Assembly: GCA_030390025.1 (NCBI GenBank)
Contig: JASTWF010000034.1
Coordinates: forward strand, 124,001 to 188,000
Length of the DNA: 64,000 nucleotides
Direction: 5' to 3'
Source: Squalus acanthias
Taxonomy: Eukaryota
Shown: piece after piece, positions 9,358-64,000 of the stretch
Layout: each line of letters begins with the position of its first letter
How positions within the stretch are numbered: position 1 is the stretch's first letter
Translations under genes and position numbers: made by a program
Notes under the pieces: model-generated
Seen by the model: the letters and a program-made list of their open reading frames with translations, nothing else
Databases searched by the model: none
What the model was told of the DNA's origin: nothing

Positions 9358-10645
9358 TCACTTGTGAACTCGCTGGTGTGTCCGCAGGTTGGACGACTGA
9401 GTGAATCCCTTCCCACACTCAGAGCAGGTGAATGGCCTCTCCCCAGTGTGAACTCGCTGGTGTGTCCGCAGGTTGGATAAATTAGTGAATCCCTTCCCAC
9501 ACTCGGGGCAGGTGAACGGCCTCTCCCCAGTGTGAATTCGCTGGTGTGTCAGCAGATCCTTTGTGCTTTTAAAGCTCTTCTCACACTCAGAACATTTAAA
9601 AGGTCTCTTATTAGTGTGAACAAGTTGGTGTGTCCGGAAGTTGGATGACTGAGTGAATCTCATCCCACACACAGAGCAGGTGAACGGCTTCTCCTTAGTG
9701 TGAACCCGCTGGTGTGTCTGCAGATGGGAAGAATGAGCAAATCCTTTCCCACACACAGAGCAGGTGAACAGCCTCTCCCCTGTGTGAACTAGCTGGTGTG
9801 TCAACAGGTTGGCTGAACGAGTGAATCTCTTCCCACATATGGAGCAAGTGAACAACCTCTCCCTGGTGTGAGCTCGCTGGTGTTTCAGCAGGTTGGATGA
9901 ACGAGTGAACCCCTTCCCACATACGGAGCAAGTGAACAACCTCTCCCTGGTGTGAACTCGCTGGTGTTTCAGTACGTTGGATGAGTGGGCAAATGTCTTT
10001 GCACAGTGAGAGCACCTGAACGGTCTCTCGTCACTGTGAACTCGCTGGTGTGTCAGCAGGTGGTTGGATTCAGAAAATCCCTTCCCACACAATGAGCAGG
10101 TGAACGGCCTCTCCCCAGTGTGAATTTGCTGGTGTTTTAGCAGGTTTGATGTTTCTTTGAAAGTCTTCAGGCAGTGAGAGCAACTGAAGGGTCTCTCCCC
10201 AGTGTGAATGCGCCGATGAGTTTCCAGTTGGGACGGGTAATTGAATCCCTTCCCACAGTCCTCACATTTCCACGGTTTCTCCGTGGTGGGTGTCCTTGTG
10301 TCTCTCCAGCTTGGATGATCAGTTGAAGCCTCGTTCACACACAGAACACGTGTACGGTTTCTTCCTACAGTGAATGATGCAACTTTTTTCAGGCTGTGTA
10401 ACTGGTTAAAGCTCTTTCCACAGTCAGTGCACTGGAACACTCTCACTCGGGTGTGTGTGTCTCGGTGCTTTTCCAGTCACACTGATGTTTGAAATCTTTT
10501 CCCACAGACAGAACAGACAAACATTTCTCCTTCCACATTCAAAGGCCGATGATATTCAGGTCCTGATGAATGAAGTGACTCTGTCAGATCTTGATGTGAT
10601 GTTTGGTTTGAGCTTGCATTCCGTGAATGCTGCCTTTCTCACAGC
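9358..10645 (-). CDS. C2H2 zinc-finger gene copy 1, last exon (11 canonical fingers; no in-frame ATG ahead of the fingers, possibly a pseudogene)
   Basis: ORF 9358-10446 with repeated TGERPF-C-x2-C...H-x3-H units. Splice acceptor ttttacag| at 10646/10645. The paralogous MEKPW start is ACG here. Confidence 0.8.
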
Positions 10646-11817: not shown

Positions 11818-12375
11818 CAGCGTCGACAGCGGGGGAGGAGGAGCCTTTCTTTCTTTCTCTCTCCCACAGAGCGGTCGGCAGCGGGGAAGGAGGAGCGGAC
11901 CTGGTTGGAGCGGCAGAGGCCTGAGGTGAGTCAATAAAGGGAGGCCCGAGGCTCAGGTAGGCCTCAGACCAGCGTCGACAGCGGGGGAGGAGGAGCCTTT
12001 CTTTCTTTCTCTCTCCCACAGAGTGGTCGGCAGCGGGGAAGGAGGAGCGGACCTGGTTGGCGCGGCAGAGGCCTGAGGTGAGTCATTAAACTCACCTACG
12101 TGGCCTTTTTCCCCAGCGGGGTAAGAGCTTCGCGGGATTTTTCAAAGGCAGGGGGCGGGGCCAATTCATTGGTACCCGTATATAGGTGGAGCGGTTGCTA
12201 AACCCGAGACACTACACTAGTAGTGACTCCCACCCTCCCACCTCCTCTAACCTTTAGGGGTAGAGGGAATTTAAAAGGTAGGTTCGATTTTATATTTTGT
12301 TTTCAGGGACTTAACTCCTGGACCTAAGATAAATAAGTTTAAATTTTAGTAATAAAGTTACATAAGGGTTAAGTC

Positions 12376-13320
12376 ATGACAGGAAGTCTCGGACCCGTTT
12401 CATGCTCCTCCTGTGCCATGTGGGAAACCAGGGACACTTCCAGTGTCCCTGACAACTACATGTGCGGGAAGTGTGTCCAGCTGCAGCTCCTGACAGCCCG
12501 CATGGCGGTGTTGGAGCTGCGGGTGGACTCACTCTGGAGCATGCACGATGCCGAGAACTCGGTGAATCGCTCATTTAGTGAGTTGTCCACACCGCAGGTA
12601 AAGGCTAGGACAGACAGTGAATGGGTGACCAAGAAGCAGGGCAATATCAGGAAGGTAGTGCAGGAGTCTCCTGTGGTCATCTCCCTCCAAAACAGGTATG
12701 CCGCTTTGGATACTGTTGGGGGAGATGGCCTACCAGGGGAAGGCACCAGCAGCCAGGTTCATGGCACCATGGCTGGCTCTGCTGCACAGCAGGGCGGGAA
12801 AAAGAGTGGTAGGGCTATAGTGATAGGGGACTCAATTGTAAGGGGAATAGACAGGAGTTTCTGTGGCCGCAACCGAGATTCCAGGATGGTATGTTGCCTC
12901 CCTGGTGCAAGGGTCAAGGATGTCTCGGAGCGGCTGCAGAACATTCTGAAGAGGGAGGGTGAACAGCCAGCTGTCGTGGTGCATGTAGGTACCAACGATA
13001 TAGGTAAAAAGCGGGAAGAGGTCCTACAAGCAGAATTTAGGGAGCTAGGAGCTAAATTAAAAAGTAGGACCTCTAAGGTAGTAATCTCTGGATTGCTACC
13101 AGGGCCACGTGCTAATCAGAATAGAGAGAACAGGATAGTGAGATTGAATACGTGGCTTGAGCAGTGGTGCAGGAGGGAGGGATTCAAATTCCTGAGGCAT
13201 TGGAACCAGTTCTGGGGGAAGTGGGACCTGTACAAAAGGGACGGTCTGCACTTGGGCAGGACTGGAACCGATGTCCTCGGGGTAATATTTGCTAAAGCAG
13301 TTCGGGAGGATTTAAACTAA
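12376..13320 (+). CDS. CR1 ORF1p (N-terminal C4 zinc finger/coiled coil plus SGNH esterase)
   Basis: CSSCAMWE...CGKC, leucine-rich heptads, IVIGDSIVR, HVGTND and DGLH motifs. Confidence 0.9.
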   Translation: MTGSLGPVSCSSCAMWETRDTSSVPDNYMCGKCVQLQLLTARMAVLELRVDSLWSMHDAENSVNRSFSELSTPQVKARTDSEWVTKKQGNIRKVVQESPVVISLQNRYAALDTVGGDGLPGEGTSSQVHGTMAGSAAQQGGKKSGRAIVIGDSIVRGIDRSFCGRNRDSRMVCCLPGARVKDVSERLQNILKREGEQPAVVVHVGTNDIGKKREEVLQAEFRELGAKLKSRTSKVVISGLLPGPRANQNRENRIVRLNTWLEQWCRREGFKFLRHWNQFWGKWDLYKRDGLHLGRTGTDVLGVIFAKAVREDLN

Positions 13321-13367
13321 TATGGCAGGGGAAGGGGAACCTATGTAGCGAAACAGGGGGAAGTAAT

Positions 13368-16304
13368 ATGCAGTCAGAAACAAATGTTAGAAGGGTGAGA
13401 AACAATAGGGGAAGGCCGAGTAAACAAAGGCAAGAAACACAAAGGGCCATACTAAATCAGAAGTCTAAAAGGACAAAGGATGTTAATAAAATAAGCCTAA
13501 AGGCTCTGTGTCTTAATGCAAGGAGTATCCGTAATAAGGTGGATGAATTGACTGTGCAAATAGATGTTAACGGATACGATGTGATTGGGATTACAGAGAC
13601 GTGGCTCCAGAACAATCAAGGCTGGGAACTCAACATCCAGGGGTATTTAACATTCAGAAAGGATAGAATAAAAGGAAAAGGGGGTGGGGTAGCATTGCTG
13701 GTTAAAGAGGAGATTAATGCAATAGCTAGGAAGGACATCAGCTTGGAGGATGTGGAATCAATATGGGTTGAGCTGCAGAACACCAAAGGGCAGAAAACGT
13801 TAGTGGGAGTTGTGTACAGACCTCCAAACAGCAGTAGTGAGTTGGGGGAGGGTATGAAACAGGAAATCAGAGGTGCGTGCAAAAAAGGCACGGCAGTTAT
13901 CATGGGTGACTTTAATATGCATATAGATTGGGCTACTCAAACTGGAAGCAATACGGTGGAGGAGGATTTCCTGGAGTGTTTAAGGGATGGTTTCCTAAAC
14001 CAATATGTTGAGGAACCAACTCGAGGGGAGGCCATTCTGGACTGGGTGTTGTGTAATGAGGAAGGACTAATCAGCAATCTTGTGGTACGAGGCCCCCTGG
14101 GGAAGAGTGACCATAGTATGGTGGAGTTCTACATTAGGATGGAGAAGGAAACAGTTAAGTCAGAGACCATGGTCCAGAACTTAAATAAGGGCAACTTTGA
14201 GGGTATGAGGCGTGAATTGGCGAGGTTAAATTGGCAAGCGATATTTAAGGGGCTATCAGTGGAAGGGCAATGGCAGACATTTAGAGATCGCATGGATGAA
14301 CTACAACAATTGTACATCCCAGTCTGGCATAAAAATAAAAAAGGGAAGGTGGCTCAACCATGGCTAACAAGGGAAATCAGGGATAGTATTAAAACCAAGG
14401 AAGTTGCATACAAATTGGCCAGAAGTAGCAGCAAACCCGTGGACTGGGAGAACTTCAAAACTCAGCAGAGGAGGACGAAGGATTTGATTAGGGCAGGGAA
14501 AATAAAATATGAAAGGAAGCTTGCAGAGAACACTAAAATGGACTGCAAAAGCTTCCATAAATATGTAAAAAGAAAGAGGTTAGTAAAAACAAACGTAGGT
14601 CCCCTGCAGTCGGAAACAGGGGAAGTCGTAATGGGGAACAAGGAAATGGCAGATCAATTGAACAAGTACTTTGGTTCGGTGTTTACTGTGGAGGACACAC
14701 ACAACCTGCCGGAAATAAAAGGGGTCAGAGGATCTGGTAAGAGGGAGGAGCTGAGGGAAATCCTTATTAGTCGGGAACAGGTATTGAGGAAATTGATGGG
14801 ACTGAAGGCTGAAAAATCCCCGGGGCCTGATGGTCTGCATCCCAGAGTACTTAAGGAGGTGGCCTTGGAAATAGTGGATGCATTGACGATCATTTTCCAA
14901 CAATCCTTAGACTCTGGACCAGTTCCGATGGAGTGGAGGGTGGCCAATGTAACCCCTCTTTTTAAAAAAGGAGGGAGGGAGAAAGTAGGGAATTATAGAC
15001 CGGTCAGCCTGACATCGGTCGTGGGTAAAATGATGGAAGCAATTATTAAAGATGTCATAACAGACCATTTGGAAAGTGGCGACATGATAGGTCCAAGTCA
15101 GCATGGATTTGTGAAAGGGAAATCATGCTTGACAAATCTTCTGGAATTTTTTGAGGATGTTTCCAATAGGGTGGACAGGGGGGAACCAGTAGATGTGGTG
15201 TATTTGGACTTTCAGAAGGCCTTCGACAAGGTCCCACACAAGAGATTGGTGAGCAAAGTTAAAGCACATGGGATTGGGCGTAATGTGTTGACGTGGATTG
15301 AGAACTGGTTGGCAGACAGGAAACAAAGAGTAGGAGTAAATGGGTACTTTTCAGAATGGCAGGCAGTGACCAGCGGGGTACAGCAGGGTTCGGTGCTGGG
15401 ACCCCAGCTGTTTACATTATATATTAATGATTTGGACGAAGGGATTAAATGTAATATCTCCAAATTTGCGGATGACACTAAATTGGGAGGCAGTGTGAAC
15501 AATGAGGAGGATGCTAGGAGGCTACAGAGTGACTTGGACAGGTTGGGTGAATGGGCAAATGTATGGCAGATGAAGTACAATGTGGATAAATGTGAGGTTA
15601 TCCACTTTGGTGGTAAAAATAGAGAGGCGGACTATTACCTGAATGGTGGCAAATTAGGGAAAGGGGAGGTGCAACGAGACCTGGGCGTCATGGTACATCA
15701 GTCACTGAAGGTGGGAATGCAAGTGCAGCAGGCAGTCAAGAAAGCAAACGGAATGATGGCCTTCATAGTAAGGGGATTTGAGTACAGGAGTAGGGAGGTG
15801 ATGCTGCAGTTGTACAGGGCCTTGGTGAGGCCACACCTGGAGTATTGTGCGCAGTTTTGGTCTCCTAACTTAAGGAAGGACATTCTTGCTATTGAGGGAG
15901 TGCAGCAAAGGTTCACTAGATTGATTCCTGGGATGGCCGGACTGACATATCAAGAAAGATTGGGTCAACTGAACTTGTATCCTCTGGAGTTCAGAAGAAT
16001 GAGGGGGGATCTTATAGAGGCATTTAAAATCCTGACTGGTTTAGACAAATTAGATGCGGGCAGAATGTTCCCAATGTTAGGGAAAACTAGAACCAGGGGT
16101 CACAGTCTAAGGATTAAGGGGAAGCCATTTAAGACTGAGCTGAGGAGGAACTTCTTCACCCAGAGAGTGGTGAATCTATGGAATTCTCTTCCACAGAAGG
16201 TTGTTGAGGCCAGTTCGCTAAATATATTCAAAAGGGAGTTAGATATAACACTCACAACGAGGGGGATCGAGGGGTATGGCGAGAAAGCAGGAATGGGGTA
16301 CTGA
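13368..16304 (+). CDS. CR1 ORF2p (APE endonuclease plus reverse transcriptase), 978 aa open
   Basis: CLNARS, GITETWL, MGDFN, LDWVL and SDH; RT motifs YLDFQKAFD and KFADDTK. Confidence 0.93.
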   Translation: MQSETNVRRVRNNRGRPSKQRQETQRAILNQKSKRTKDVNKISLKALCLNARSIRNKVDELTVQIDVNGYDVIGITETWLQNNQGWELNIQGYLTFRKDRIKGKGGGVALLVKEEINAIARKDISLEDVESIWVELQNTKGQKTLVGVVYRPPNSSSELGEGMKQEIRGACKKGTAVIMGDFNMHIDWATQTGSNTVEEDFLECLRDGFLNQYVEEPTRGEAILDWVLCNEEGLISNLVVRGPLGKSDHSMVEFYIRMEKETVKSETMVQNLNKGNFEGMRRELARLNWQAIFKGLSVEGQWQTFRDRMDELQQLYIPVWHKNKKGKVAQPWLTREIRDSIKTKEVAYKLARSSSKPVDWENFKTQQRRTKDLIRAGKIKYERKLAENTKMDCKSFHKYVKRKRLVKTNVGPLQSETGEVVMGNKEMADQLNKYFGSVFTVEDTHNLPEIKGVRGSGKREELREILISREQVLRKLMGLKAEKSPGPDGLHPRVLKEVALEIVDALTIIFQQSLDSGPVPMEWRVANVTPLFKKGGREKVGNYRPVSLTSVVGKMMEAIIKDVITDHLESGDMIGPSQHGFVKGKSCLTNLLEFFEDVSNRVDRGEPVDVVYLDFQKAFDKVPHKRLVSKVKAHGIGRNVLTWIENWLADRKQRVGVNGYFSEWQAVTSGVQQGSVLGPQLFTLYINDLDEGIKCNISKFADDTKLGGSVNNEEDARRLQSDLDRLGEWANVWQMKYNVDKCEVIHFGGKNREADYYLNGGKLGKGEVQRDLGVMVHQSLKVGMQVQQAVKKANGMMAFIVRGFEYRSREVMLQLYRALVRPHLEYCAQFWSPNLRKDILAIEGVQQRFTRLIPGMAGLTYQERLGQLNLYPLEFRRMRGDLIEAFKILTGLDKLDAGRMFPMLGKTRTRGHSLRIKGKPFKTELRRNFFTQRVVNLWNSLPQKVVEASSLNIFKRELDITLTTRGIEGYGEKAGMGY

Positions 16305-16751
16305 GGTAGCATGTTCAGCCATGAACGCATTGAATGGCGGTGCAGGCTCGAAGGACCGAATGGTCTACTCCTGTACCTATTTTCTATGTTTCTATGTACC
16401 TGCATGTTAACTTTCAGTGATTCGTGTACAAGGACACCCAGGTCCCTCTGAACACCAACATTTCCCAATCTCTCACCATTTAAAAAACTTGGATATATTA
16501 CATACTCAAATCCTCTTGTAATAAAGGCCCACCTTTCGTGAAGTGCTCCGGGCACTTTATTAAACACACACACAGCAGAAGCACTTTAATCTGATGGGAG
16601 ATCACTGACACATAATCAGTCAGCGGTGTGGAGCCTCCTGAGAGTCCGGCCCCTTTACAGCCAGTATTTACAGGAGCTGGGACACAGAAAGAAGTCTCAT
16701 TAAAATTACGGATATATTTGTTCACACAAACCAGCCCCCAAAATACTGAGT

Positions 16752-18240: not shown

Positions 18241-18612
18241 AATAAGAGAGGAAAGAATGTTCCATAGAAACTAGAATTATCTGTTCTGCAGTTTTATCCT
18301 GAACTTAGTGATGTCTTTTGTAAACTGCTTTTACAGGGAATATCAGCAGCCTTTGAATGTGGAAGGAGAAATGTTTGCCTGTTCTGTCTGTGGGACAAGA
18401 TTTCAACATCAGTGTGACTGGAAAAGCACCGAGACACACACACCCGAGTGAGAGTGTTCCAGTGCACTGTCTGTGGAAACAGCTTTCACCAGTTACACAG
18501 CCTGAAAAATCATCACACCATTCACAGTGAGGAGAAACCGTACACGTGTTCTGTGTGTGGACGAGGCTTCAACTGATCGTCCAACCTGGAGAGACACAAG
18601 GACACCCGCACC

Positions 18613-19371
18613 ATGGAGAAACCATGGCAATGTGGGGACTGTGGGAAGGGATTCAATTACCCATCCCTGCTGCAAACTCATCGACGCAGTCACACGGGGG
18701 AGAGACCATTCACCTGCTCATTGTGTGGGAAGGGATTCACTCAGTCATCCAGCCTCCAGACACACCAGCGAGTTCACACTGGGGAGAGGCCGTTCACTTG
18801 CTCCGTGTGTGGGAAGAGATTCGCTCAGTCCTCCCAACTGGTAACACACCAGCGAGTTCACACTGATGAGAGACCGTTCACTTGCCCCGTGTGTTGGAAG
18901 GGATTCACTTATTCAGCCAGCTTTATTGAACATCAACTTGTTCACTCTGATAAGAGACCATTTAAATGTTTTGACTGTGAGAAGAGCTTTAAACGCACAA
19001 GGGATCTGCTAAAACACCAACGCACTCACACTGGGGAGAGACCGTTCACTTGCTCTGTTTGTGGGAAGGGATTCACTAATTCATCCCATCTCACTGCACA
19101 TCAACTTGTTCACTCTGATAAGAGACCTTTTAAATGTTCTGACTGTGACAAAAGCTTTAAAAGCACAAAAGATCTGTTGAGACACCAACACACACACACT
19201 GGGGAGAGACCGTTCACTTGCTCTCTGTGTGGGAAGGGATTCACTGATTCATCTAACCTACTGATACACCAGCGAGTTCACACTGGGGAGAGGCCGTTCA
19301 CCTGCTCCGTCTGTGGGAAGGAATTCAGTCAGTCATCCAACCTGCTGACACACCAGCGACTTCACAAGTGA
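18613..19371 (+). CDS. C2H2 zinc-finger protein copy 2 (9 fingers, starts MEKPW)
   Basis: Intact ORF in good Kozak context (accATGg), TGERPF linkers, upstream acceptor ttttacag at about 18336. Confidence 0.88.
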
Positions 19372-34605: not shown

Positions 34606-36878
34606 GACACCAAATCCAGGGACCACGTACATTGTGACACCAAATGAGGGACCACTTTCACTGAGACTATAAATGGAAATCAGAGAGCCTCAGTATGGAG
34701 AATGGTCATGGTGGTGAAAACTGCTCTAGTGAGGGTGAAAGGCAGGTAATGGATGAAGATATGACGGCGGAATCAGATGGTGACAGGTTATTTTCAGAAA
34801 CCCTTTTCAAGCAGGCTGATGATTGGGATGTAACCAGCCCAACACCTGGATCCGCCTGTTCTTGTCCCCAAATCCCAAAGTCTAATGTCCCTGATTTATT
34901 TTTCTGTGAGAAATGTAGAGATGTGAAAGAAGGGAAAAAATCAGGCTTGGGCCAGAGAGAAGGTTCCTTGAATGAACAATTCATGAGGCTGTTTTGTGAC
35001 TCGTCTGTGTGAGGTTAAAAAACATGACATGAAAAAAGATGTGTCCAGTGACACTGGTGTTGTTAATAGTGGTTTCAAACCCTAATCACTGTCTCCTAAG
35101 CCTAACCTCCAACTGACTACCCCCAACCACTAACCCCAATCCTAACCAATAACTACTAGCCCCAACCACTAACCCCAATCCTAACCAATAACCACTAGCC
35201 CCAATCACTAACCCCAATCCTAACCAATAACCACTAGCCCCAACCACTAACCCCAATCCTGACCAATAACCACTAGCCCCAACCACTAACCCCAATCCTA
35301 ACCAATAACCACTAACCCCAACCACTAACCCCAATCCTAACCAATAACCACTAGCCCCAACCACTAACCCCAATCCTGACCAATAACCACTAGCCCCAAC
35401 CACTAACCCCAATCCTAACCAATAACCACAATCCCCAACCACTAACCCCAATCCTAACCAATAACTACTAGCCCCAACCACTAACCCCAATCCTGACCAA
35501 TAACCACTAGCACCAACCACTAACCCCAATCCTAACCAATAACTACTAGCCCCAACCACTAATTCCAATCCTAACCAATAACCAATAGCCCCAACCACTA
35601 ACCCCAATCCTGACCAATAACCACTAGCACCAACCACTAACCCCAATCCTAACCAATAACCACTAGCCCCAACCACTAACCCCAATCCTAACCAATAACT
35701 ACTAGCCCCAACCACTAACCCCAATCCTGACCAATAACCACTAGCCCCAACCACTAACCCCAATCCTGACCAATAACCACTAGCCCCAACCACTAACCCC
35801 AATCCTAACCAATAACCACTAGCCCCAACCACTAACCCCAATCCTGACCAATAACCACTAGCCCCAACCACTAACCCCAATCCTAACCAATAACCACTAG
35901 CCCCAACCACTAACCCCAATCCTAACCAATAACCACTAGCCCCAACCACTAACCCCAATCCTAACCAATAACCACTAGCCCCAACCACTAACCCCAATCC
36001 TAACCAATAACCACTACCCCTAACCACGAACCCCTAAACCTACACCTTAATCCCAGCCCCTAACCCTAACCCCAGCCCCATACCAAGGATTATTGACAGG
36101 GATCAATGGAGGAGCTAAAGATCTGATAATGGAAGTATTAAAACAATTATCTCGATTAAAGAAATAGTGCAAGGTATGTTAGTAACAAGAGATTAAATCA
36201 ATGAGACCATTAAGCTCAGAAATTACTATTACAAAGATCAGAACCTTTCAAAGTTTATCACGTGCAGTACGTGTGGAGGAGTTTTACTAACTCGAATCCA
36301 CAAAGGGTTAAATGATACAGATAATAACAGATTTCAAATCTTATGCAAGATACTTCTATAAAGCTATGGTTGAAAGGAATTGCAGCTGAGTGTACTCTTT
36401 TGTGCAAAGAAATAAACTGTAACTTAACTTAAAACATTAAAGGAAACTTAATAATTTAATTTACAGTTCATTACCTGTGGTGATAATGCACTCCAGTCCC
36501 TGTGGTGTGCAGATGAGTGTAATTGAGACACTACAGTTCAGTCTATGACACCCACAAGTCGTGTACTCAAACGGAACAAGCTTGGGTTTGATGTGGTAGA
36601 AGGTGAATTAGATGAGAACGGAAATAATCTAGAGTAAGAAAAGGCCCAAAAATTAAACAGTCGGTAACAGAACATCAATTAGTCTTCTCTTCTCATGGAG
36701 AAATCAAATATTTGACATACTGTGTGTTTGAAACAAAGCTGATTTATTCACTATTTATACAGAATATTAATCTTCAATGCAGGTACAGGGGTTATTAAGA
36801 TCAGCAGAAACAAACCATAACTGCTGGAATGAACATGGTTCAGTCCTCAATCTGATCACAGTAAATCATGTTCTATTC
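34606..36878 (+). repeat. Segmental duplication copy B
   Basis: Colinear with 26540-28995. Confidence 0.85.
35110..36080. repeat. 39-bp telomere-like minisatellite, about 23 copies
   Basis: Same unit as 27146-27890. Ends in ccctaaccctaacccc. Confidence 0.93.
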
Positions 36879-38487
36879 TGAGAGAAATGGGTTTCGATTT
36901 GTGGGGCACTGGCACCAGTACTGGGATAAGAGGGAGCTGTTCCATTTGGACGGGCTTCACTTGAACCATGCTGGGGCTAGAGTCCTGGGAAATCGAATAA
37001 CTAGGGTTGTAGAGAGAGCTTTAAACTAAATAGTGGGGAGGAGGGTCCAGGTGAGCGGAAATTTAAAAAGTCAATGAGAAATGAGAAAGCAATAGAGCAG
37101 GATAGAGATAGGGGAAATAATAACCAGAGTGTGACAGGAAGGGACAGAATGTTTAAAAATAAGAGTGCAACAGAAAATGGGGCCAAAACCAGGAGAAATG
37201 GTAAAAAGACAAAGTTAAACGCTCTATATCTGAATGCATGCAGCATTTGTAACAAGATAGATGAGTTGATGGCACAAATAGATACAAATGGGTATGATCT
37301 GATCGCCATTACAGAGACGTGGTTGCAAGGTGACCTGGGCTGGGAACTGAATATTCCAGGGTATTTGACAATTCGGAAGGATAGACAGAAAGGAAAGGGA
37401 GGTGGGTGGCTTTGTTGGTAAAGGATGGGATCAGTGCAGTGTTGAGAAGTGATATTGGCTCAGAAGATCAATATGTAGAATCGGTTTGGGTGGAGATAAA
37501 AAATAATAAGGGGAAAAAGTCTCTGGTGGGCGTAGTCAACAGGCCCCCGAACTGTAGCAATACTGTTGGACAGAGTATATATCAACAAATAATGCAGGCC
37601 TGTAAAAAAGGTACGGTAATGCAGTGGGGAAAGAGTTAAACTGACATCGCTGGCAGTCTCACTGAATGGTGTAATAAAGACAATAATCTAATAGGCCTTT
37701 GCAGCAGTAAGCTTTTTTTAAATTGCTGAACTGGCAGTTGAGATAACTTAAGATAACTGGAACCCTAAGAGGCCGAGAGGATGTAAGTCCTGTTCTGGCA
37801 GGAAGGTAAAACAATGAGTTGGAAGTAAAGAGGCCGAGAGAGGCAGGAAAGGAGGACAATGAGTCAGAAGTACAATGTTGATGAGACCCCATTTGGCATA
37901 AACATAGGTCAGAGGTGCAACAACAGCTTGTGGGATAACGGACATATACTTTTCCGATAATAAAGGCAGCCCTTTAATGTAACGCAGTATAGGCAACCAA
38001 TCAGTGAAGATGCATGCGGGCCAATGTCCAATCAGGTGGCAGGAATGAATTTTGCATCAGCTGGACATGTGTATTGTAATGTATAAAAATGTAGTGTTTG
38101 CTGTAACAATTTGGAGAGGTCTGGCTAAGACAGAGTAGGCTGTCTCCCCACCGGTGTAATAAAGACGACTTGATTATCGATCCGAAAACCTTGTGTCCAG
38201 TGTTGGTTTAAAATAAGCCACAACAATTGGCGTCACGAACAGAATCCACACGGACAGGAGGCACGGGCGAGTGAAGCTGAGCCAAAAACGTGAGTACTTT
38301 TAAATACCACGTACAGTTAGGGCAAGGCAACACCGTCTCGTGTCCACTGCCCCCTTTGGAATCAAAGAACTAAAAGGTTTGAATCGATAAGTCAAGCGGT
38401 CTTGGGGTTAGGGTGAAACACGCGGAAGTATGGGCGTGGTATGAGTTGCAAGTAGTGCGTTAACTTTGGAGTAAAAGTCTAAAGCAT

Positions 38488-51254: not shown

Positions 51255-51690
51255 CCAGAAGGTTGTGGGTTAAAATCCCACTCCAGGGACTGGAGCGCAA
51301 AAATCTAGACTGACGCTCCAGTGCAGTGCTGAGGGAGTGCTGCACTGTCAGAGGTGCCGTTTTTTTAGATGCGACGTTAAACGAGGCCCCGTCTGCCCCC
51401 TCAGGTGGAAGTAAAAGATCCCTTGGCACTGTTTCGAACAAGAGCAGGGGAGTTATCCCCGGTGTCCTGGCCAATATTTATCTCTCAATCAACATCATAA
51501 AAAAAAACCCAGATTATCTGGTCATTATCACATTGCTGTTTGTGGCAGCTTGCTGTGCACAAACTGGCTGCTGCCTGTTCGACACTGCAACAGTGACTAC
51601 ACTTCAAAAAGTACTTCATTGGCTATAAATCGCTTTGGGACGTCCAAGGTCGTGAAAGGCGCCATAGAAATACAAATCTTTTGTTCTTTC
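51255..51690 (+). mobile_element. Deu-domain SINE (SacSINE1/AmnSINE-like), 5'-truncated
   Basis: cagtgcagtgctgagggagtgctgcactgtcagaggtgccg...gaggccccgtctgcccc core with an L2-like 3' tail. Confidence 0.75.
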
Positions 51691-51701
51691 AGAGCTGTGC
51701 T

Positions 51702-52733
51702 CCCATGTCCAGTCCCAGGGTAAGAATCCCCATGTCCAGTCCCAGGGTTAGAATCCCCATGTCCAGTCCCATGGTTAGAATCCCCATGTCCAGTCCCAGG
51801 GTTAGAATCCCCATGTACAGTCCCAGGGTTAGAATCACCATGCACAGTCCCAGGGTTAGAATCCCCATGTACAGTCCCAGGGTCAGAATCCCCATGTACA
51901 GTCCCAGGGTCAGAATCCCCATGTACAGTCCCAGGGTTAGAATCCCCATGTACAGTCCCAGGGTTAGAATCCCCATGTACAGTCCCAGGGTTAGAATCCC
52001 CATGTACAGTCCCAGGGTTAGAATCCCCATGTACAGTCCCAGGGTTGGAATCCCCATGTACAGTCCCAGGGTTGGAATCCCCATGTGCAGTCCCAGGGTT
52101 GGAATCCCCATGTACAGTCCCAGGGTTAGAATCCCCATGTACAGTCCCAGGGTTAGAATCCCCATGTACAGTCCCAGGGTTAGAATCCCCATGTACAGTC
52201 CCAGGGTTAGAATCCCCATGTACAGTCCCAGGGTTAGAATCCCCATGTACAGTCCCAGGGTTAGAATCCCCATGTACAGTCCCAGGGTTAGAATCCCCAT
52301 GTACAGTCCCAGGGTTAGAATCACCATGTACAGTCCCAGGGTTAGAATCACCATGTACAGTCCCAGGGTTAGAATCCCCATGTACAGTCCCAGGGTTAGA
52401 ATCCCCATGTACAGTCCCAGGGTTGGAATCCCCATGTACAGTCCCAGGGTTGGAATCCCCATGTACAGTCCCAGGGTTAGAATCCCCATGTACAGTCCCA
52501 GGGCTGGAATCCCCATGTACAGTCCCAGGGTTAGAATCCCCATGTACAGTCCCAGGGGGTTAGAATCCCCATGCACAGTCCCAGGGTTAGAATCCCCGTG
52601 TACAGTCCCAGGGTCAGAATCCCTGTGTACAGTCCCAGGGTCAGAATCCCCGTGTACAGTCCCAGGGTCAGAATCCCCATGTACAGTCCCAGGGTTAGAA
52701 TCCCCATGTACAGTCCCAGGGCTGGAATCCCCA
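51702..52733. repeat. 27-bp tandem repeat, about 38 copies
   Basis: Unit ccccatgtacagtcccagggttagaat. Confidence 0.95.
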
Positions 52734-53184
52734 CGTGTGAAAGAACGTTGTATAGAAACCAGAATTGTCTGTTTTGAATTTCTATCCTGTACTTACAGTG
52801 ATGACTTTTGTAAACTCTTTTTACAGGGTGTGAGAAGGGGAGGATTTGCAGATGGGAAACTCAAACCAAACATCACAACAAGATCTGACAGAGTCACTCA
52901 ATTCATCAGGGTTGAATATCATCGACCTTTGAATGTGAGAAATGCTTGTCTGTTCTGTCTGTGGGGAAAAATTTCAAACATCAGTGTGACTGGAAAAGCA
53001 CCGAGACACACACACCCGAGTGAGAGTGTTCCAGTGCACTGACTGTGGAAAGAGCTTTAACCAGTTACACAGCCTGAAAAATACTCGCACCATTCACAGC
53101 GGAGAGAAAACGTACACGTGTTCTGTGTGTGGACGAGGCTTCAACTGATCGTCCAACCTGGAGAGATACAAGGACACCCGCACC

Positions 53185-53997
53185 ATGGAGAAACTGTGGC
53201 AATGTGGGGACTGTGGGAAGGGATTCAGCTCCCCATCCCACCTGGAAATTCATCGACGCAGTCACACTGGGGAGAGGCCGTTCACCTGCTCAGTGTGTGG
53301 GAAGGGATTCGCTCAGTCATCCAACCTGCTGAGACACCGGCAAGTTCACACTGGGGAGAGGCCGTTCACCTGCTCCGTGTGTGGGAAGGGATTCACTAAT
53401 TCAGCCCACCATCTGAGACACCAGCGAGTTCACACTGACGAGAGACCTTTTAAATGCTCCGACTGTGTGAACTGCTTTAAAAGCTCTGAGGAACTGATTC
53501 AGCACCAGCGAGTTCACACTGACGATAAACCATTCAGTTGCTCTCACTGTGGGAAAAGCTTCAGGCAGTCATTCAATCTCATTGTACACCAGCGCACTCA
53601 CACTGGGGAGAGGCCGTTCACCTGCTCCGTGTGTGGGAAGGGATTCACTCAGTCATCCAACCTGCTGACACACCAGCCAGTTCACACTGGGGAGAGGCCG
53701 TTCACCTGCTCCGTGTGTGGGAAGGGATTTACTCGATCATCCAGCCTGCTGACACACCAACGAATTCACACTGGGGAGAGGCCGTTCACCTGCTCCGTGT
53801 GTGGGAAGGGTTTCTCTCGATCGTCCAGCCTGCTCACTCACCAGCGAGTTCACACTGAGGAGAGGCCGTTCACCTGCTCCGTGTGTGGGAAGGGATTCAC
53901 ACATTTATCCAGCATGCTGAGACACCAGCGAGTTCACAAGTCACTGCAGGGGTTGGATTCTGCTGTTATTGCTGCTGTTAATCACATCCAGGACTGA
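53185..53997 (+). CDS. C2H2 zinc-finger protein copy 4 (9 fingers, extended C-terminus)
   Basis: Intact ORF MEKLWQC..., acceptor ttttacag at about 52826. The paralogous stop TGA is TCA here. Confidence 0.88.
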
Positions 53998-55629: not shown

Positions 55630-58600
55630 CGGAACATTCTGAGGGGCGAGGGTGAACAGCCAGAGGTCGTGGTCCATATCAGTACCAACGACATAGGTAG
55701 AAAGAGGGATGAGGTCCTGCAGGCAGATTTTAGGGCGCTAGGAGAGATTAAAAAGCAGGATCTCAAAGGTAGTAATCTCCGGATTACTCCCGGTGCCACA
55801 CGCTCGTGGGTATAGAAATAGAAGGATAGAACAGATGAATGTGTGGCTGGAGAGAAGGTGCAGAAGGGAGGGCTTTAGATTCCTGAGGCATTGGGACTGG
55901 GTCTGGGGGAGGTGGGACCTGTATAGGCCCGAAGGCTTGCACCTCAACAGGGCCGGAACCAATATCCTCACGGGGAGGTTTGCTGGTGCTGTTGGGGAGG
56001 GTTTAAACTAATTTGTCAGGGGGATGGGCACCAGGATGAAACATTAGAAAGGGGAAGTAAAGTGCTCACAGGATTGGGAGAGGCAGAGAGCACTAAAGTA
56101 AGATATAGTGAGGTATTAGGTGGGGTCAAACTAAGAGAGAATGCAGGATGGTCTAAGATGGGTTCACAGTGTTTGTATGTGAACGCACGAAGCGTAGTAA
56201 ACAAGGTCAGTGAGCTGCAGGCACAAATAGCCACATGGGAATATGATGGTGTGGCAATAACTGAGACCTGGCTCAAAAAAGGGCAGGATTGGGTATTAAA
56301 TATTCCTGGTTATAGAGTGTTCAGGAAAGATAGGGAAGGAAAGGTCGGAGGTGGTGTGGCAGTATTGGTCAAGGAGAATGTTACAGTGCTGGAGAGGGAG
56401 GATGTTCTGGAGGGGTCAAGGACAGAATCTATATGGCTAGAGTTAAATAGGTGCCATTACACTACTAGGTGTATTCTATAGACCACCAACTAGTGGGAAA
56501 GATATGGAGGAGCAAATTTGCAGGGAAATTACAGAGAGGTTCAAGAACTATAGAGTAGTAATAATGGGGGACTTCAACTATCCTAATATAGACTGGGATA
56601 GTAATAGTGTTAAAGGCAGAGAAGGGGAAGAATTTCTGAAGTGTGTTCAGGAGAACTTTCTTGATCAGTATGTTTCCGGCCCGACGAGGGAGGAGGCATT
56701 GCTGGACCTGGTTCTGGGGAATGAGGTGGGTCAAGTGGAGCAAGTGTCAGTCGGGGAACATTTAGGGAACAGTGATCATAGTATCATAAGGTTTAGATTA
56801 GCTATGGAAAAGGACAGGGAGCAATCTAGAGTAAAAATGTTTAACTGGGGGAAGGCCAATTTCAGTGGGATGAGAATGGATCTGGCCCGGGTAAACTGGA
56901 ATCAAAGATTAGCAGCAAAACTGTAATGGAACAATGGGCTGCCTTTAAAGAGGAAATAGTTCAGGTACAGTTGAGGTACATTCCCACTAGGGGGAAAGTC
57001 AGGGCTCCCTGGATGACGAAAGAGTTAGAGAATATGATGAAGCAGAAAAAGAGTGCGTATGACAGATGTCCGGTTGCAAATACAACTGAGAATCAGGCTA
57101 AATATAGAAAGGGCAGAGGAGAAGTGAAAAAGAAAATAAGAGGGGCAAAGCGAGGGTATGAGAATAGAATGGCAGCCACTATAAAAGGTAATCCAAAAGC
57201 CTTCTATAGGCATTTAAATAGTAAACGGGTAGTAAGAGGAGGGGTGGGCCAATTAGGGACCAAAAAGGAGACCTATGCATGGAGGCAGAGGGCATGGCTG
57301 AGGCACTAAACGAGTATTTTGCATCTGTCTTCACCAAGGAAGAGGATGCTGCCATAGACATAGTGAAGGAGGAGGTAGTGGAGACACTTGATAGGATAAA
57401 AATTGATAAAGAGGTATTGGAAAGGCTGGCTGTACTTAAAGTAGATAAATCACCAGGAGCGGATGGGATGCATCCTAGGATGCTGAGGGAATTGAGGGAG
57501 GAAATCGCGGAGGTACTGGCCATAATATTCCAATCCTCCTTGATACGGGGGTGGTGCCAGAGGACTGGAGAATTGCAAATGTTACACCCTTGTTCAAAAA
57601 AGGGTGTAAAGATAAACCCAGCAACTACAGGCCAGTCAGTTTGACCTCGGTAGTGGGGAAGCTTTTAGAAACAGTAATCAGGGACAAAATTAACAGTCAC
57701 TTGGATAGGTGTGGATTAATTAAGGAAAGCCAGCACAGATTTGTTAAAGACAAATCGTGTTTAACTAACTTGACTGAGTTCTTTGATGAGGTAACAGAGA
57801 GGGTTGATGAGGGTAATGCGGTTAACGTGGTGTACATGGATTTCCAGAAGGCGTTCGACAAAGTGCCACATAATAGGCTTGCCAGTAAAGTTGAAGCCCA
57901 TGAAATAAAAGGGACAGTGGCAGCATGGATAAGAAATTGGCTAAGTGACAGAAAACAGAGAGTAGTGGTGAACGGTTGTTTTTCGGACTGGAGGAAGGTA
58001 CACAGTGGTGTTCCCCAGGGGTCGGTTCTAGGACCACTGCTTTTCTTGATTATATATTAATTGGATGTGGGTGTACAGGCACATTTCAAAATTTGCAGAT
58101 GACACAAAACTTGGAAGTTTCGTGAACAGTGAGGAGGATAGTGATAGACTTCAGGAAGACATAGACAGGCTGGTGAAATGGGCGGACACGTGGTAAATGA
58201 AATTTAACGCAGAAAAGTGTGAAGTGATACATTTTGGTAGAAAGAATGGGGAGAGGCAATATAAACTAAATGGTACAATCCTAAAGGGGGTGCACAGAGA
58301 GACCTGGGGGTCTGTGTGCACAAATCGTTGAAGGTGGCAGGGCAGGTTGAGAAAACAGTTAAAAAGGCATACAGGATCCTGGGCTTCATAAATAGAGGTA
58401 TAGAGTACAAAAGTGTGGAAATTATGATGAACCTTTATAAAACACTGGTTCAACCCCAACTGGAGTACAGTGTCCAATTCTGGGCACCGCACTTTAGGAA
58501 GGATGTGAAGGCCTTAGAGAAGGTGCAGAAAAGATTTACGAGAATGATTCCAGGAATGTGGGACTTCAGTTACGTGGATAGACTGGAGAAGCTGGGGTTG

Positions 58601-62401: not shown

Positions 62402-62939
62402 TGATGTAAACCCATCAGCTTCTTAATGGAGTATTAAAGTTGGTGACACTGGACACTTGAACCTGCAAATTAATAGGACAAGGGGTTCGCTAGAATCTTA
62501 CACCCCAAGTCTCTCTTCTCTACTCCTTTCAAAGTTCTAACATTTCATGTTTAGATTTTAGGAGGAAGAAAAATGTATCACCTCCCATTTCTCTGCGTTA
62601 ATCTTCATCGGCCATCTGCCTGCCCCATTTATAACCTGTGTATTCACTGAAGTCACTGACAGGCCTTTCACAGTTGGCCAAGGTCCCTTTTTTGGTGTCA
62701 TCGAGAGACTTTGGTCTTGTGCCCCACAAACCCAAGCCCAGAACATTTCTCTATATTGAGAAGAGCAATGGTGCCAACACTGACCCTGGGGGACACCACT
62801 GTTTACATCCCTCCAGTCTGAAGAACATCATTAACCAGAACTCTCTGTTCTCTGCCCTTTACCCAACTTCCTATCCGCGCTGCCCCACTCCCTTTAATAC
62901 CCTGAGCCTTAATTTGATCAACAAGCCTCCGGCCCTCAC

Positions 62940-63267
62940 CCGTGTTGTTGATGAGGAGCAGCCGCTCCGGAGGTCCGTCCTGGTCCTGGCCACCGGTGAC
63001 CGAGCTCAGCACCCGCTGCACCGCCTCTGCCTCACTGAGCTTGGCTTCCACACGGCTCACCCTCAACCCGCCGCCCAGCAGAGCCGCTGCTTCCAGCACC
63101 TGGCGCTCCACCTCCCGCAGGTTGTCCCCAGACCTGGCCATCAGCACCAGGTGGGAGCCAGCCCGCAGCCTGGGAGCCAGCACCAGGGACAGCCTCTTCC
63201 CCAGACCCCTGGAGGCGCCCATGATGATGCACAGGCTCTTGCCGAGGTCCCTCAGTCCTCCATCCAT
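62940..63267 (-). CDS. spr: Sepiapterin reductase-like (SDR family) first coding exon
   Basis: MDGGLRDLGKSLCIIMGASRGLG...GSHLVLMARS...GLRVSRV...RLLLINNTG resembles the vertebrate SPR N-terminus. Ends at donor G|GTGAGG at the NNAG position where SPR exon 1 ends. Confidence 0.78.
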
Positions 63268-63464
63268 CCTCGCCACTTCCTCTCGCATCAGATCCGACTC
63301 CTGCTGATCTGTATCTTGTCAGCACCAGCCATCTGCACTTTGATCAGACTGGGCAACTGGCCAGTATTGTTGCAGTCTAGAATTTTTTTAATTCATTCTC
63401 GGGATGTGAGCATCACTGGTAAAGCCAGTATTTATTGCCCATCCCTAGTTGCCCTCGAGAAAAG

Positions 63465-64000
63465 AATAAGAATTAGGAGCAGGAGTGGGTCATACGGCCC
63501 CTCGAGCCTGCTCCACCATTCAATAAGATCATGGCTGATCTTCGACCTCAACTCCACTTTCCAGCCCGATCCCCGTATCCCTTGATTCCAAAAATCTATC
63601 GATCTCAGCCTTGAATATACTCAACGACTGAGCATCCACAGCACTTTGGGGCAGAGAATTCCAAAGATTCACAACCCTCTGAGTGAAGAAATTCCTCCTC
63701 ATCTCAGTCTTAAATGGCCGACCCCTTATCCTGAGACTATGCCCCCTAGTTCTAGACACTCCAGCCAGGGGAAACAACCTCTCAGCATCTACCCTGTCAA
63801 TCCCCTTCAGAATCTTATGTTTCAATGAGATCACCTCTCATTCTTCTAAACTCCAGAGAGTATAGGCCCATTCTACTCAATCTCTCATCATAGGACAGCC
63901 CTCTCATCCCAGGAATCAATCTAGTGAACCTTCGTTGCACCGCCTCCAAGGCAAGTATGTCCTTCCTTAGATAAGGAGACTGAAACTGTGCACAGTACTC
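63465..64000 (-). mobile_element. CR1 3' fragment (runs off the right edge)
   Basis: DRVDAERLFPLAG..RGHSLRIRG..FTQRVVNLWNSLP plus 3' hairpin. Confidence 0.85.

Follow-up and report, generated by a model that had tools for sequence, protein, structure and literature searches.

CR1 copies and their ORF1–ORF2 junctions

We analysed a 64-kb stretch of the Squalus acanthias genome (hereafter the window) that carries on its forward strand a near-intact long interspersed nuclear element (LINE) of the CR1 type, with open reading frame 1 (ORF1) followed by ORF2, and we asked how ORF2 of such elements is translated. ORF2 translation in two-ORF LINEs is a long-open question, with reinitiation as the working model. 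ORF1 (12376..13320, + strand) encodes 314 amino acids from its ATG, with an N-terminal CX2C-X17-CX2C (zinc-finger-like) motif and a GDSL/SGNH esterase domain (PF13472, E 3e-13), and ends Asp-Leu-Asn-stop. The heptamer T_TTA_AAC lies at this end in ORF1 phase (13311..13317, +) and is a predicted −1 shift site of the slippery kind, the class X_XXY_YYZ being the textbook site of −1 frameshifting; the stop codon TAA (13318..13320, +) follows directly 3′. The −1 frame is open from stop to stop for 1002 amino acids (13296..16304, +) and encodes the APE endonuclease and the reverse transcriptase (RT) of ORF2, with a predicted entry after the slip at 13317 (+) and the endonuclease Asn codon at 13515 (+). 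A G-rich tract (13328..13337, +), which is a candidate stimulator, begins 10 nt past the heptamer. The 3′ untranslated region (UTR; 16305..16396, +) contains a predicted hairpin and two 8-nt TTTCTATG repeats, and has no poly(A).

Canonical vertebrate CR1 elements, described as abundant in sharks and rays, have an esterase ORF1, an ORF2 with APE and RT, and no poly(A) (PMC13343379, in the part covered), and the esterase ORF1 of CR1 is classified as type IVB (PMC4120745, likewise in part). The window element shows the canonical features, namely, the esterase ORF1, the APE and RT in ORF2, and a hairpin/tandem-repeat 3′ end without poly(A). The nearest named relatives of its ORF1 are from sharks and rays, and a comparison by eye indicated that the window junctions resemble entries labelled CR1 in the covered portions of the PMC13343379 supplement.

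The original prediction was that a −1 frameshift joins ORF1 to ORF2 at all three CR1 junctions of the window. TTTAAAC followed by TAA was found in phase at 13311–13317, 37020–37026 and 56002–56008, with xxT TTA AAC as the last codons in each case. Because tblastn with ORF1 matched the window at exactly these three places, the heptamer is present in all of its CR1 junctions. ORF2 sits in the −1 frame, open, at all three of these ORF1-bearing copies. The second junction (37020..37029 with its TAA, +) belongs to a truncated, decayed copy of another subfamily, in which the −1 frame is open over 37005–37421; the third (56002..56011 with its TAA, +) belongs to a decayed copy of another subfamily, open over 55927–56481. 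The three junction regions are 51–72% alike upstream and 53–59% alike downstream, in agreement with the claim of divergent families with differing flanks. For in-phase X_XXY_YYZ (Y = A or T, Z not G), the heptamer stands alone among the 316 codons of the window element's ORF1 frame (12373–13320), and none was found among the 1003 codons of its ORF2. The start codons proposed for ORF2 fared less well: ATG is present at 13368 and 37074, but 56062 is GTG, and the first −1-frame Met of that copy is at 56158. Moreover, the ATGs at 13368 and 37074 vary between subfamilies, and the former is probably not the true start.

Conservation of the heptamer and of the −1 frame

The 3.7-Gb genome was searched with a pattern that took the esterase DGLHL motif as its anchor and left the final ORF1 codons degenerate. 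This pattern gave 26,395 matches (4 for a control pattern), with the exact heptamer in 25,169. Leu encoded by CTN at the last Leu position occurred in 34 matches, of which 33 had CTA and one a shifted heptamer. The first heptamer letter was other than T in 373, and the 100 of these inspected contained mixed letters from many subfamilies. Since the pattern presumes Leu-Asn-stop, a second one ending before the junction was also used (24,973 matches). It retrieved 20 matches missed by the first, in which the heptamer was displaced by an indel (10), mutated (8) or cut off (2), and no other junction type was present among these 20.

Clustering of the first 90 matches of the ORF1-end pattern gave 19 subfamilies. 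All 19 had TTA for the last Leu, whereas 6, 4 and 4 different codons were in use at three further invariant Leu positions, and the codon preceding TTA ended in T in all 19 despite encoding Gly, Ala, Asp or His. The last Asn was AAC in 18 of 19, and the ORF1 stop was TAA in 13 and TAG in 6. Between subfamilies the Leu and Asn codons were thus invariant synonymously rather than freely variable, as the original prediction had anticipated. In supplementary table 2 of PMC13343379, whose cells end after 400 letters and whose consensus rows are too gappy for a frame check, the heptamer-plus-stop string occurred 23 times; 17 of these were ORF1/ORF2 junctions by reading and 6 lay elsewhere. The 17 junction entries carry the labels AllMis, CroPor, AmiCal, AquCat, CalMil, HypSab, LatCha, PriPec, ScyCan, SquAca and AldAff. 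The same string is also found within the 5′ UTR of SquAca_CR1-3 and SquAca_CR1-18 in that supplement.

The endonuclease motif was in the −1 frame in 60 of the 90 copies. From the heptamer to the endonuclease Asn, this frame was stop-free in 52 of the 60, so that the stops whose presence would contradict a −1 shift were rare, and the other frames each contained 2 or more stops in every one of the 60. An open copy was present in 13 of the 19 clusters, with a linker of 47–71 codons in ten different lengths. No Met was found between the heptamer and the endonuclease Asn in 21 of the 52 open copies, and in the Met-bearing ones the first Met occupied nine positions (3, 16, 19, 23, 26, 38, 43, 44 and 57), leaving no conserved AUG for the ORF2 start across subfamilies. 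Upstream, the −1 frame closed at a median of 5 codons before the heptamer, and an ATG was present in that short stretch in only 1 of 90 copies. Because of this upstream closure and the scattered or absent Met, the −1 frame is held open exactly from the heptamer onward, with no other conserved entry. In the locus L277, ORF1 is open for 311 and the −1 frame for 968 amino acids, and the first −1 Met is residue 166, beside a GDFN motif; the Asn aligned to L1 endonuclease Asn14 lies 119 residues before this Met. In L268, the −1 frame is open for 994 amino acids with the first Met at 162. The alignment of the ORF2 Asn with Asn14, which we take to be an active-site residue, was obtained by a profile search of the PDB, a single-sequence PDB search having given no match.

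Several copies departed from this layout individually. The length of the downstream G-run differs between copies in cluster 16 (L032, L188, L226 and L256) and in clusters 14, 15 and 17, and the endonuclease is one base out of frame in 4 of the 6 copies of cluster 16; such changes could have arisen by slipping of the reverse transcriptase, by mutation afterwards or as sequencing errors. In L290, L291 and L299 (also L297 and L305), and in the protein P0021, an indel fuses ORF1 in frame with ORF2, giving natural fused copies; the fusing indels are often in a G-run just 5′ of the heptamer and occur in single copies. L269 and L276 have a near-identical 3′ UTR and endonuclease together with different ORF1 and junction types, likely by recombination between subfamilies.

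Heptamer exchange in distant elements was absent from the original prediction and adds to its support. Among the distant ORF1 proteins (the best 150 of 2,953 representatives), 92 had a scorable motif. These ended in Leu-Asn (33) or Gly-Asn (10), had Lys-Asn (12, one doubtful) or ended in Gly-Phe or Phe-Phe (4), and a further 10 were of the DGLHP type, 9 of them without any of these ends. Named carriers of Leu-Asn included swallow, tegu, common lizard and coelacanth. The residue preceding a terminal Leu-Asn was Glu, Gln, Lys, Met or Trp, none of which has a codon ending in U, in 1 of 42 cases compared with 16% nearby, and the residue preceding Gly-Asn was Gln in 10 of 11. It follows that the residue before the terminal dipeptide obeys the X_XXY rule.

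At the nucleotide level, metagenomes were searched with a pattern that ends short of the junction and leaves the heptamer out, which gave at least 122 loci, mostly of a bacterial esterase family; 17 were examined and 15 were of CR1 type by their look. A canonical in-phase heptamer was present in 10 of the 15, as T_TTA_AAC (5), G_GGA_AAC (2) or A_AAA_AAC (3), and in the A_AAA_AAC loci the ORF1 stop lies 11–13 codons further downstream. In 7 of these 10 loci the −1 frame was open to the endonuclease, 5 of them without Met before the Asn and 2 with a Met only two codons ahead of it. These three heptamers are among the four most shift-prone named in the covered part of PMC5009743. On an esterase tree made by a quick method (74 rows, C-terminus excluded), the end type changed 5 times for Leu-Asn, 5 for Gly-Asn and 3 for Lys-Asn, with well-supported branches forcing at least 2 changes each. 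Scans of viral contigs found no CR1 junction.

The DGLHP esterase ORF1s (P0068–P0074, P0184, P0207, P0219, P0229, P0232, P0244 and P0249) are from fish, likely of L2 type, and form a single clade without slippery-type ends; elements of this type therefore probably express ORF2 by other means. P0174 and P0192 end in Glu-Asn, and P0158, P0185, P0198 and P0238 in Gly-Phe or Phe-Phe; these ends, known from protein only, would be compatible with additional slippery forms. P0007, an entry on a 4-kb contig filed as Pseudomonas aeruginosa, is a CR1 ORF1 of shark type and likely a contamination.

Sequences downstream of the heptamer

G-runs were predicted to follow the heptamer, and they do; the onset of at least four G was corrected to 10 nt past the heptamer in the first and third window copies and to 8 nt in the second. 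Across the 19 clusters, positions +18 to +22 were G in 17–19, GGGG occupied +18 to +21 in 14 (compared with 1.1% per position nearby), and CAG stood directly 5′ of the G-run in 12. Among the distant loci, the G-run began at +17 or +18 in all 7 of the U and G types; the 3 of the A type had none, and two of these were C-rich.

Neither a conserved pseudoknot or hairpin nor an all-family G-quadruplex was supported for this region. A conserved local hairpin was rejected as the stimulator, since z fell below −2.5 in a single cluster of the 19 and in a single one of the 10 distant loci. Downstream of the heptamer we observed neither a conserved stem nor a C-rich partner, pseudoknots themselves not being modelled. 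A universal G-quadruplex was likewise rejected: only 8 of 19 clusters had one in their predicted fold, the window family lacked it, and the two-tier G-quadruplex pattern was present in 12 of 19 clusters and absent from 5 of 7 distant G-run loci. Engineered G-quadruplexes are described as giving approximately 7% stimulation at a spacing of 6–8 nt (PMC3919603, in the part covered). Long-range base-pairing between the G-rich flank and the element's 3′ tip was rejected, as shuffled UTRs did equally well in 24–93% of trials over 10 elements, and the best pairing partners over whole elements had no shared place among 21 elements. A signal like the termination upstream ribosome-binding site (TURBS), UGGGA, was dropped by inspection, as the motif lies 3′ of the stop with no conserved AUG nearby.

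In the virus PRRSV, a C-rich motif that lies 11 nt beyond the shift site on its 3′ side is bound by PCBP and nsp1beta and stimulates frameshifting, according to the covered part of PMC5009743. The CR1 motif is similarly short, unstructured and fixed at a distance of approximately 10 nt, and because of this resemblance a bound protein might be proposed as the stimulator. Unlike that of PRRSV, the CR1 motif is G-rich and has no known binding protein, so the comparison serves as an analogy only. By this analogy, the G-run may perhaps act through a bound protein rather than a hairpin, helped by the adjacent stop.

Translation of ORF2

Taken together, the junctions make it very probable that CR1 ORF2 is produced as an ORF1–ORF2 fusion by programmed −1 ribosomal frameshifting. 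The sequences directly establish the heptamer, its phase, its fixation at the nucleotide level, the open −1 frame, the lack of a conserved AUG and the heptamer swaps; from these we infer the slip, the fusion protein and its low share. The majority of ribosomes would terminate at the TAA or TAG after the heptamer and release free ORF1 protein, while a smaller share would step back by one base, with the Leu and Asn tRNAs on UUA AAC, and read through the variable linker into the endonuclease and RT. The fusion product of the window copy would have approximately 1309 amino acids. A more tentative part of this scheme is that the adjacent stop and the unstructured G-run would stimulate the slip.

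A number of observations weigh against frameshifting. In addition to the missing 3′ stem and the patchy G-quadruplex, no in-frame score was possible for 30 of the 90 copies (the endonuclease was in another frame in 17 and its motif unmatched in 13), including the 4 copies of cluster 16 mentioned above. The ends of 23 of the 92 scorable distant ORF1 proteins fit no class, and 5 of the 15 CR1-type metagenome loci lack a clean heptamer; four of these are damaged at the junction, and the other (L081) is non-canonical with its endonuclease in another frame. Moreover, the subfamilies share ancestry, the Asp codon GAC at position −24 is likewise fixed in 19 of 19, and a Met does precede the endonuclease in 31 of the 52 open copies.

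This Met, and the ORF1 stop abutting the heptamer, could instead be taken as marks of termination–reinitiation, proposed for L1 and SART1, in which ribosomes would resume at an AUG or near-cognate codon further 3′, with the conserved letters forming a reinitiation or termination signal. For other LINEs with two ORFs, reinitiation is the accepted model (PMC2881922), L1 and SART1 ORF2 being attributed to reinitiation or coupling (PMC2881922, PMC5009743) and L1 ORF2 initiation being described as AUG-independent (PMC5009743), in the parts of these sources covered. However, the first Met is scattered or missing, the frame is kept open 5′ of it, and reinitiation leaves unexplained both the X_XXY_YYZ swaps and the A_AAA_AAC loci with their more distant ORF1 stop; we therefore consider it improbable. 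Frameshifting and some reinitiation could coexist.

A splice signal (a branch point with an AG close by) or an internal promoter resembling a TATA box, yielding an ORF2 transcript, is suggested by the likeness of CTAA to a branch point and of TTTAAA to a TATA variant and by the CAG ahead of the G-run, but is very unlikely: there is no pyrimidine tract, the AG is only approximately 7 nt from the supposed branch point, TTTAAA is absent from the G_GGA_AAC and A_AAA_AAC loci and CTA from the A-type, neither process requires the ORF1 phase, and a transcript of ORF2 alone would leave the 21 Met-less copies without an AUG. Contigs from four sequencing runs span the junction without a joint there, which is uninformative on expression. 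Equally slight is the chance that conservation acts only on the proteins or by inheritance, with Leu-Asn kept at the ORF1 end, Phe-Lys-Leu in the overlapping ORF2 and the codons retained by descent. Overlapping coding would fix T TTA AA, and the fixed GAC shows that descent alone is able to fix a two-fold site; but the −1 frame has no upstream entry, the ORF1 end switches to Gly-Asn or Lys-Asn in concert with the preceding base, and the end types change several times on the esterase tree.

Programmed −1 frameshifting in CR1 would resemble that of coronaviruses, retroviruses and Ty3-gypsy elements (PMC5009743, in part) in heptamer class, phase and the order of a structural protein upstream and RT downstream. 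It would differ in that CR1, known here from sequence, is a chromosomal element without long terminal repeats, with the stop abutting the heptamer and no conserved 3′ hairpin or pseudoknot found. Closer in kind are the Dictyostelium LINEs TRE5-A and TRE3-A, for which a review states that ORF2 requires a −1 frameshift (PMC5911963, in part); these are likewise two-ORF APE-type LINEs, but of another LINE lineage with an unrelated ORF1, and the comparison rests on the review statement rather than on their shift site. L1 and SART1 share with CR1 the problem of expressing ORF2 from a two-ORF RNA in dependence on ORF1 translation, but they yield a separate ORF2 protein, whereas the anatomy of CR1 points to a fusion (PMC2881922 and PMC5009743, in part).

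A literature search found no report of CR1 frameshifting, the original CR1 descriptions, which may raise the idea, lying outside its coverage. The word 'frameshift' has no occurrence in PMC3905857, PMC4120745 and PMC2734521 and was not found in the searched portions of the text and supplement of PMC13343379; the covered portion of PMC5009743 names HeT-A among LINEs and does not contain 'CR1', and that of PMC11835228 mentions frameshifting for retroviral gag-pol only.

If CR1 is translated in this way, its RT would carry the ORF1 esterase domain along, which would change the picture of the CR1 particle; ORF2 annotations from the first AUG would be wrong and may cut off the endonuclease active site, and screens for intact copies should test the heptamer and its phase instead of the ORF2 AUG. 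One vertebrate genome would then hold tens of thousands of copies of a classic −1 site, and host antiviral frameshift inhibitors might act on it. A more speculative extension, which we regard as possible but doubtful, is that the RT of CR1, the retrotransposon dominant in most vertebrates, is a Gag-Pol-like fusion made by an ancient shift that is driven by a G-run-binding protein and not by RNA structure. The binder might be a host G-run protein or the ORF1 protein itself, and this would make CR1, just as tentatively, the first chromosomal element with a protein-stimulated frameshift.

Among the CR1 copies, the window contains three C2H2 zinc-finger array exons (9361–10476 on the − strand, and 18577–19368 and 53149–53994 on the + strand), and it appears to belong to a zinc-finger gene cluster. 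At 35086–36033 (−), 51597–53042 and 62635–63585 there are long open frames that match no Pfam family and are probably simple or tandem repeats.

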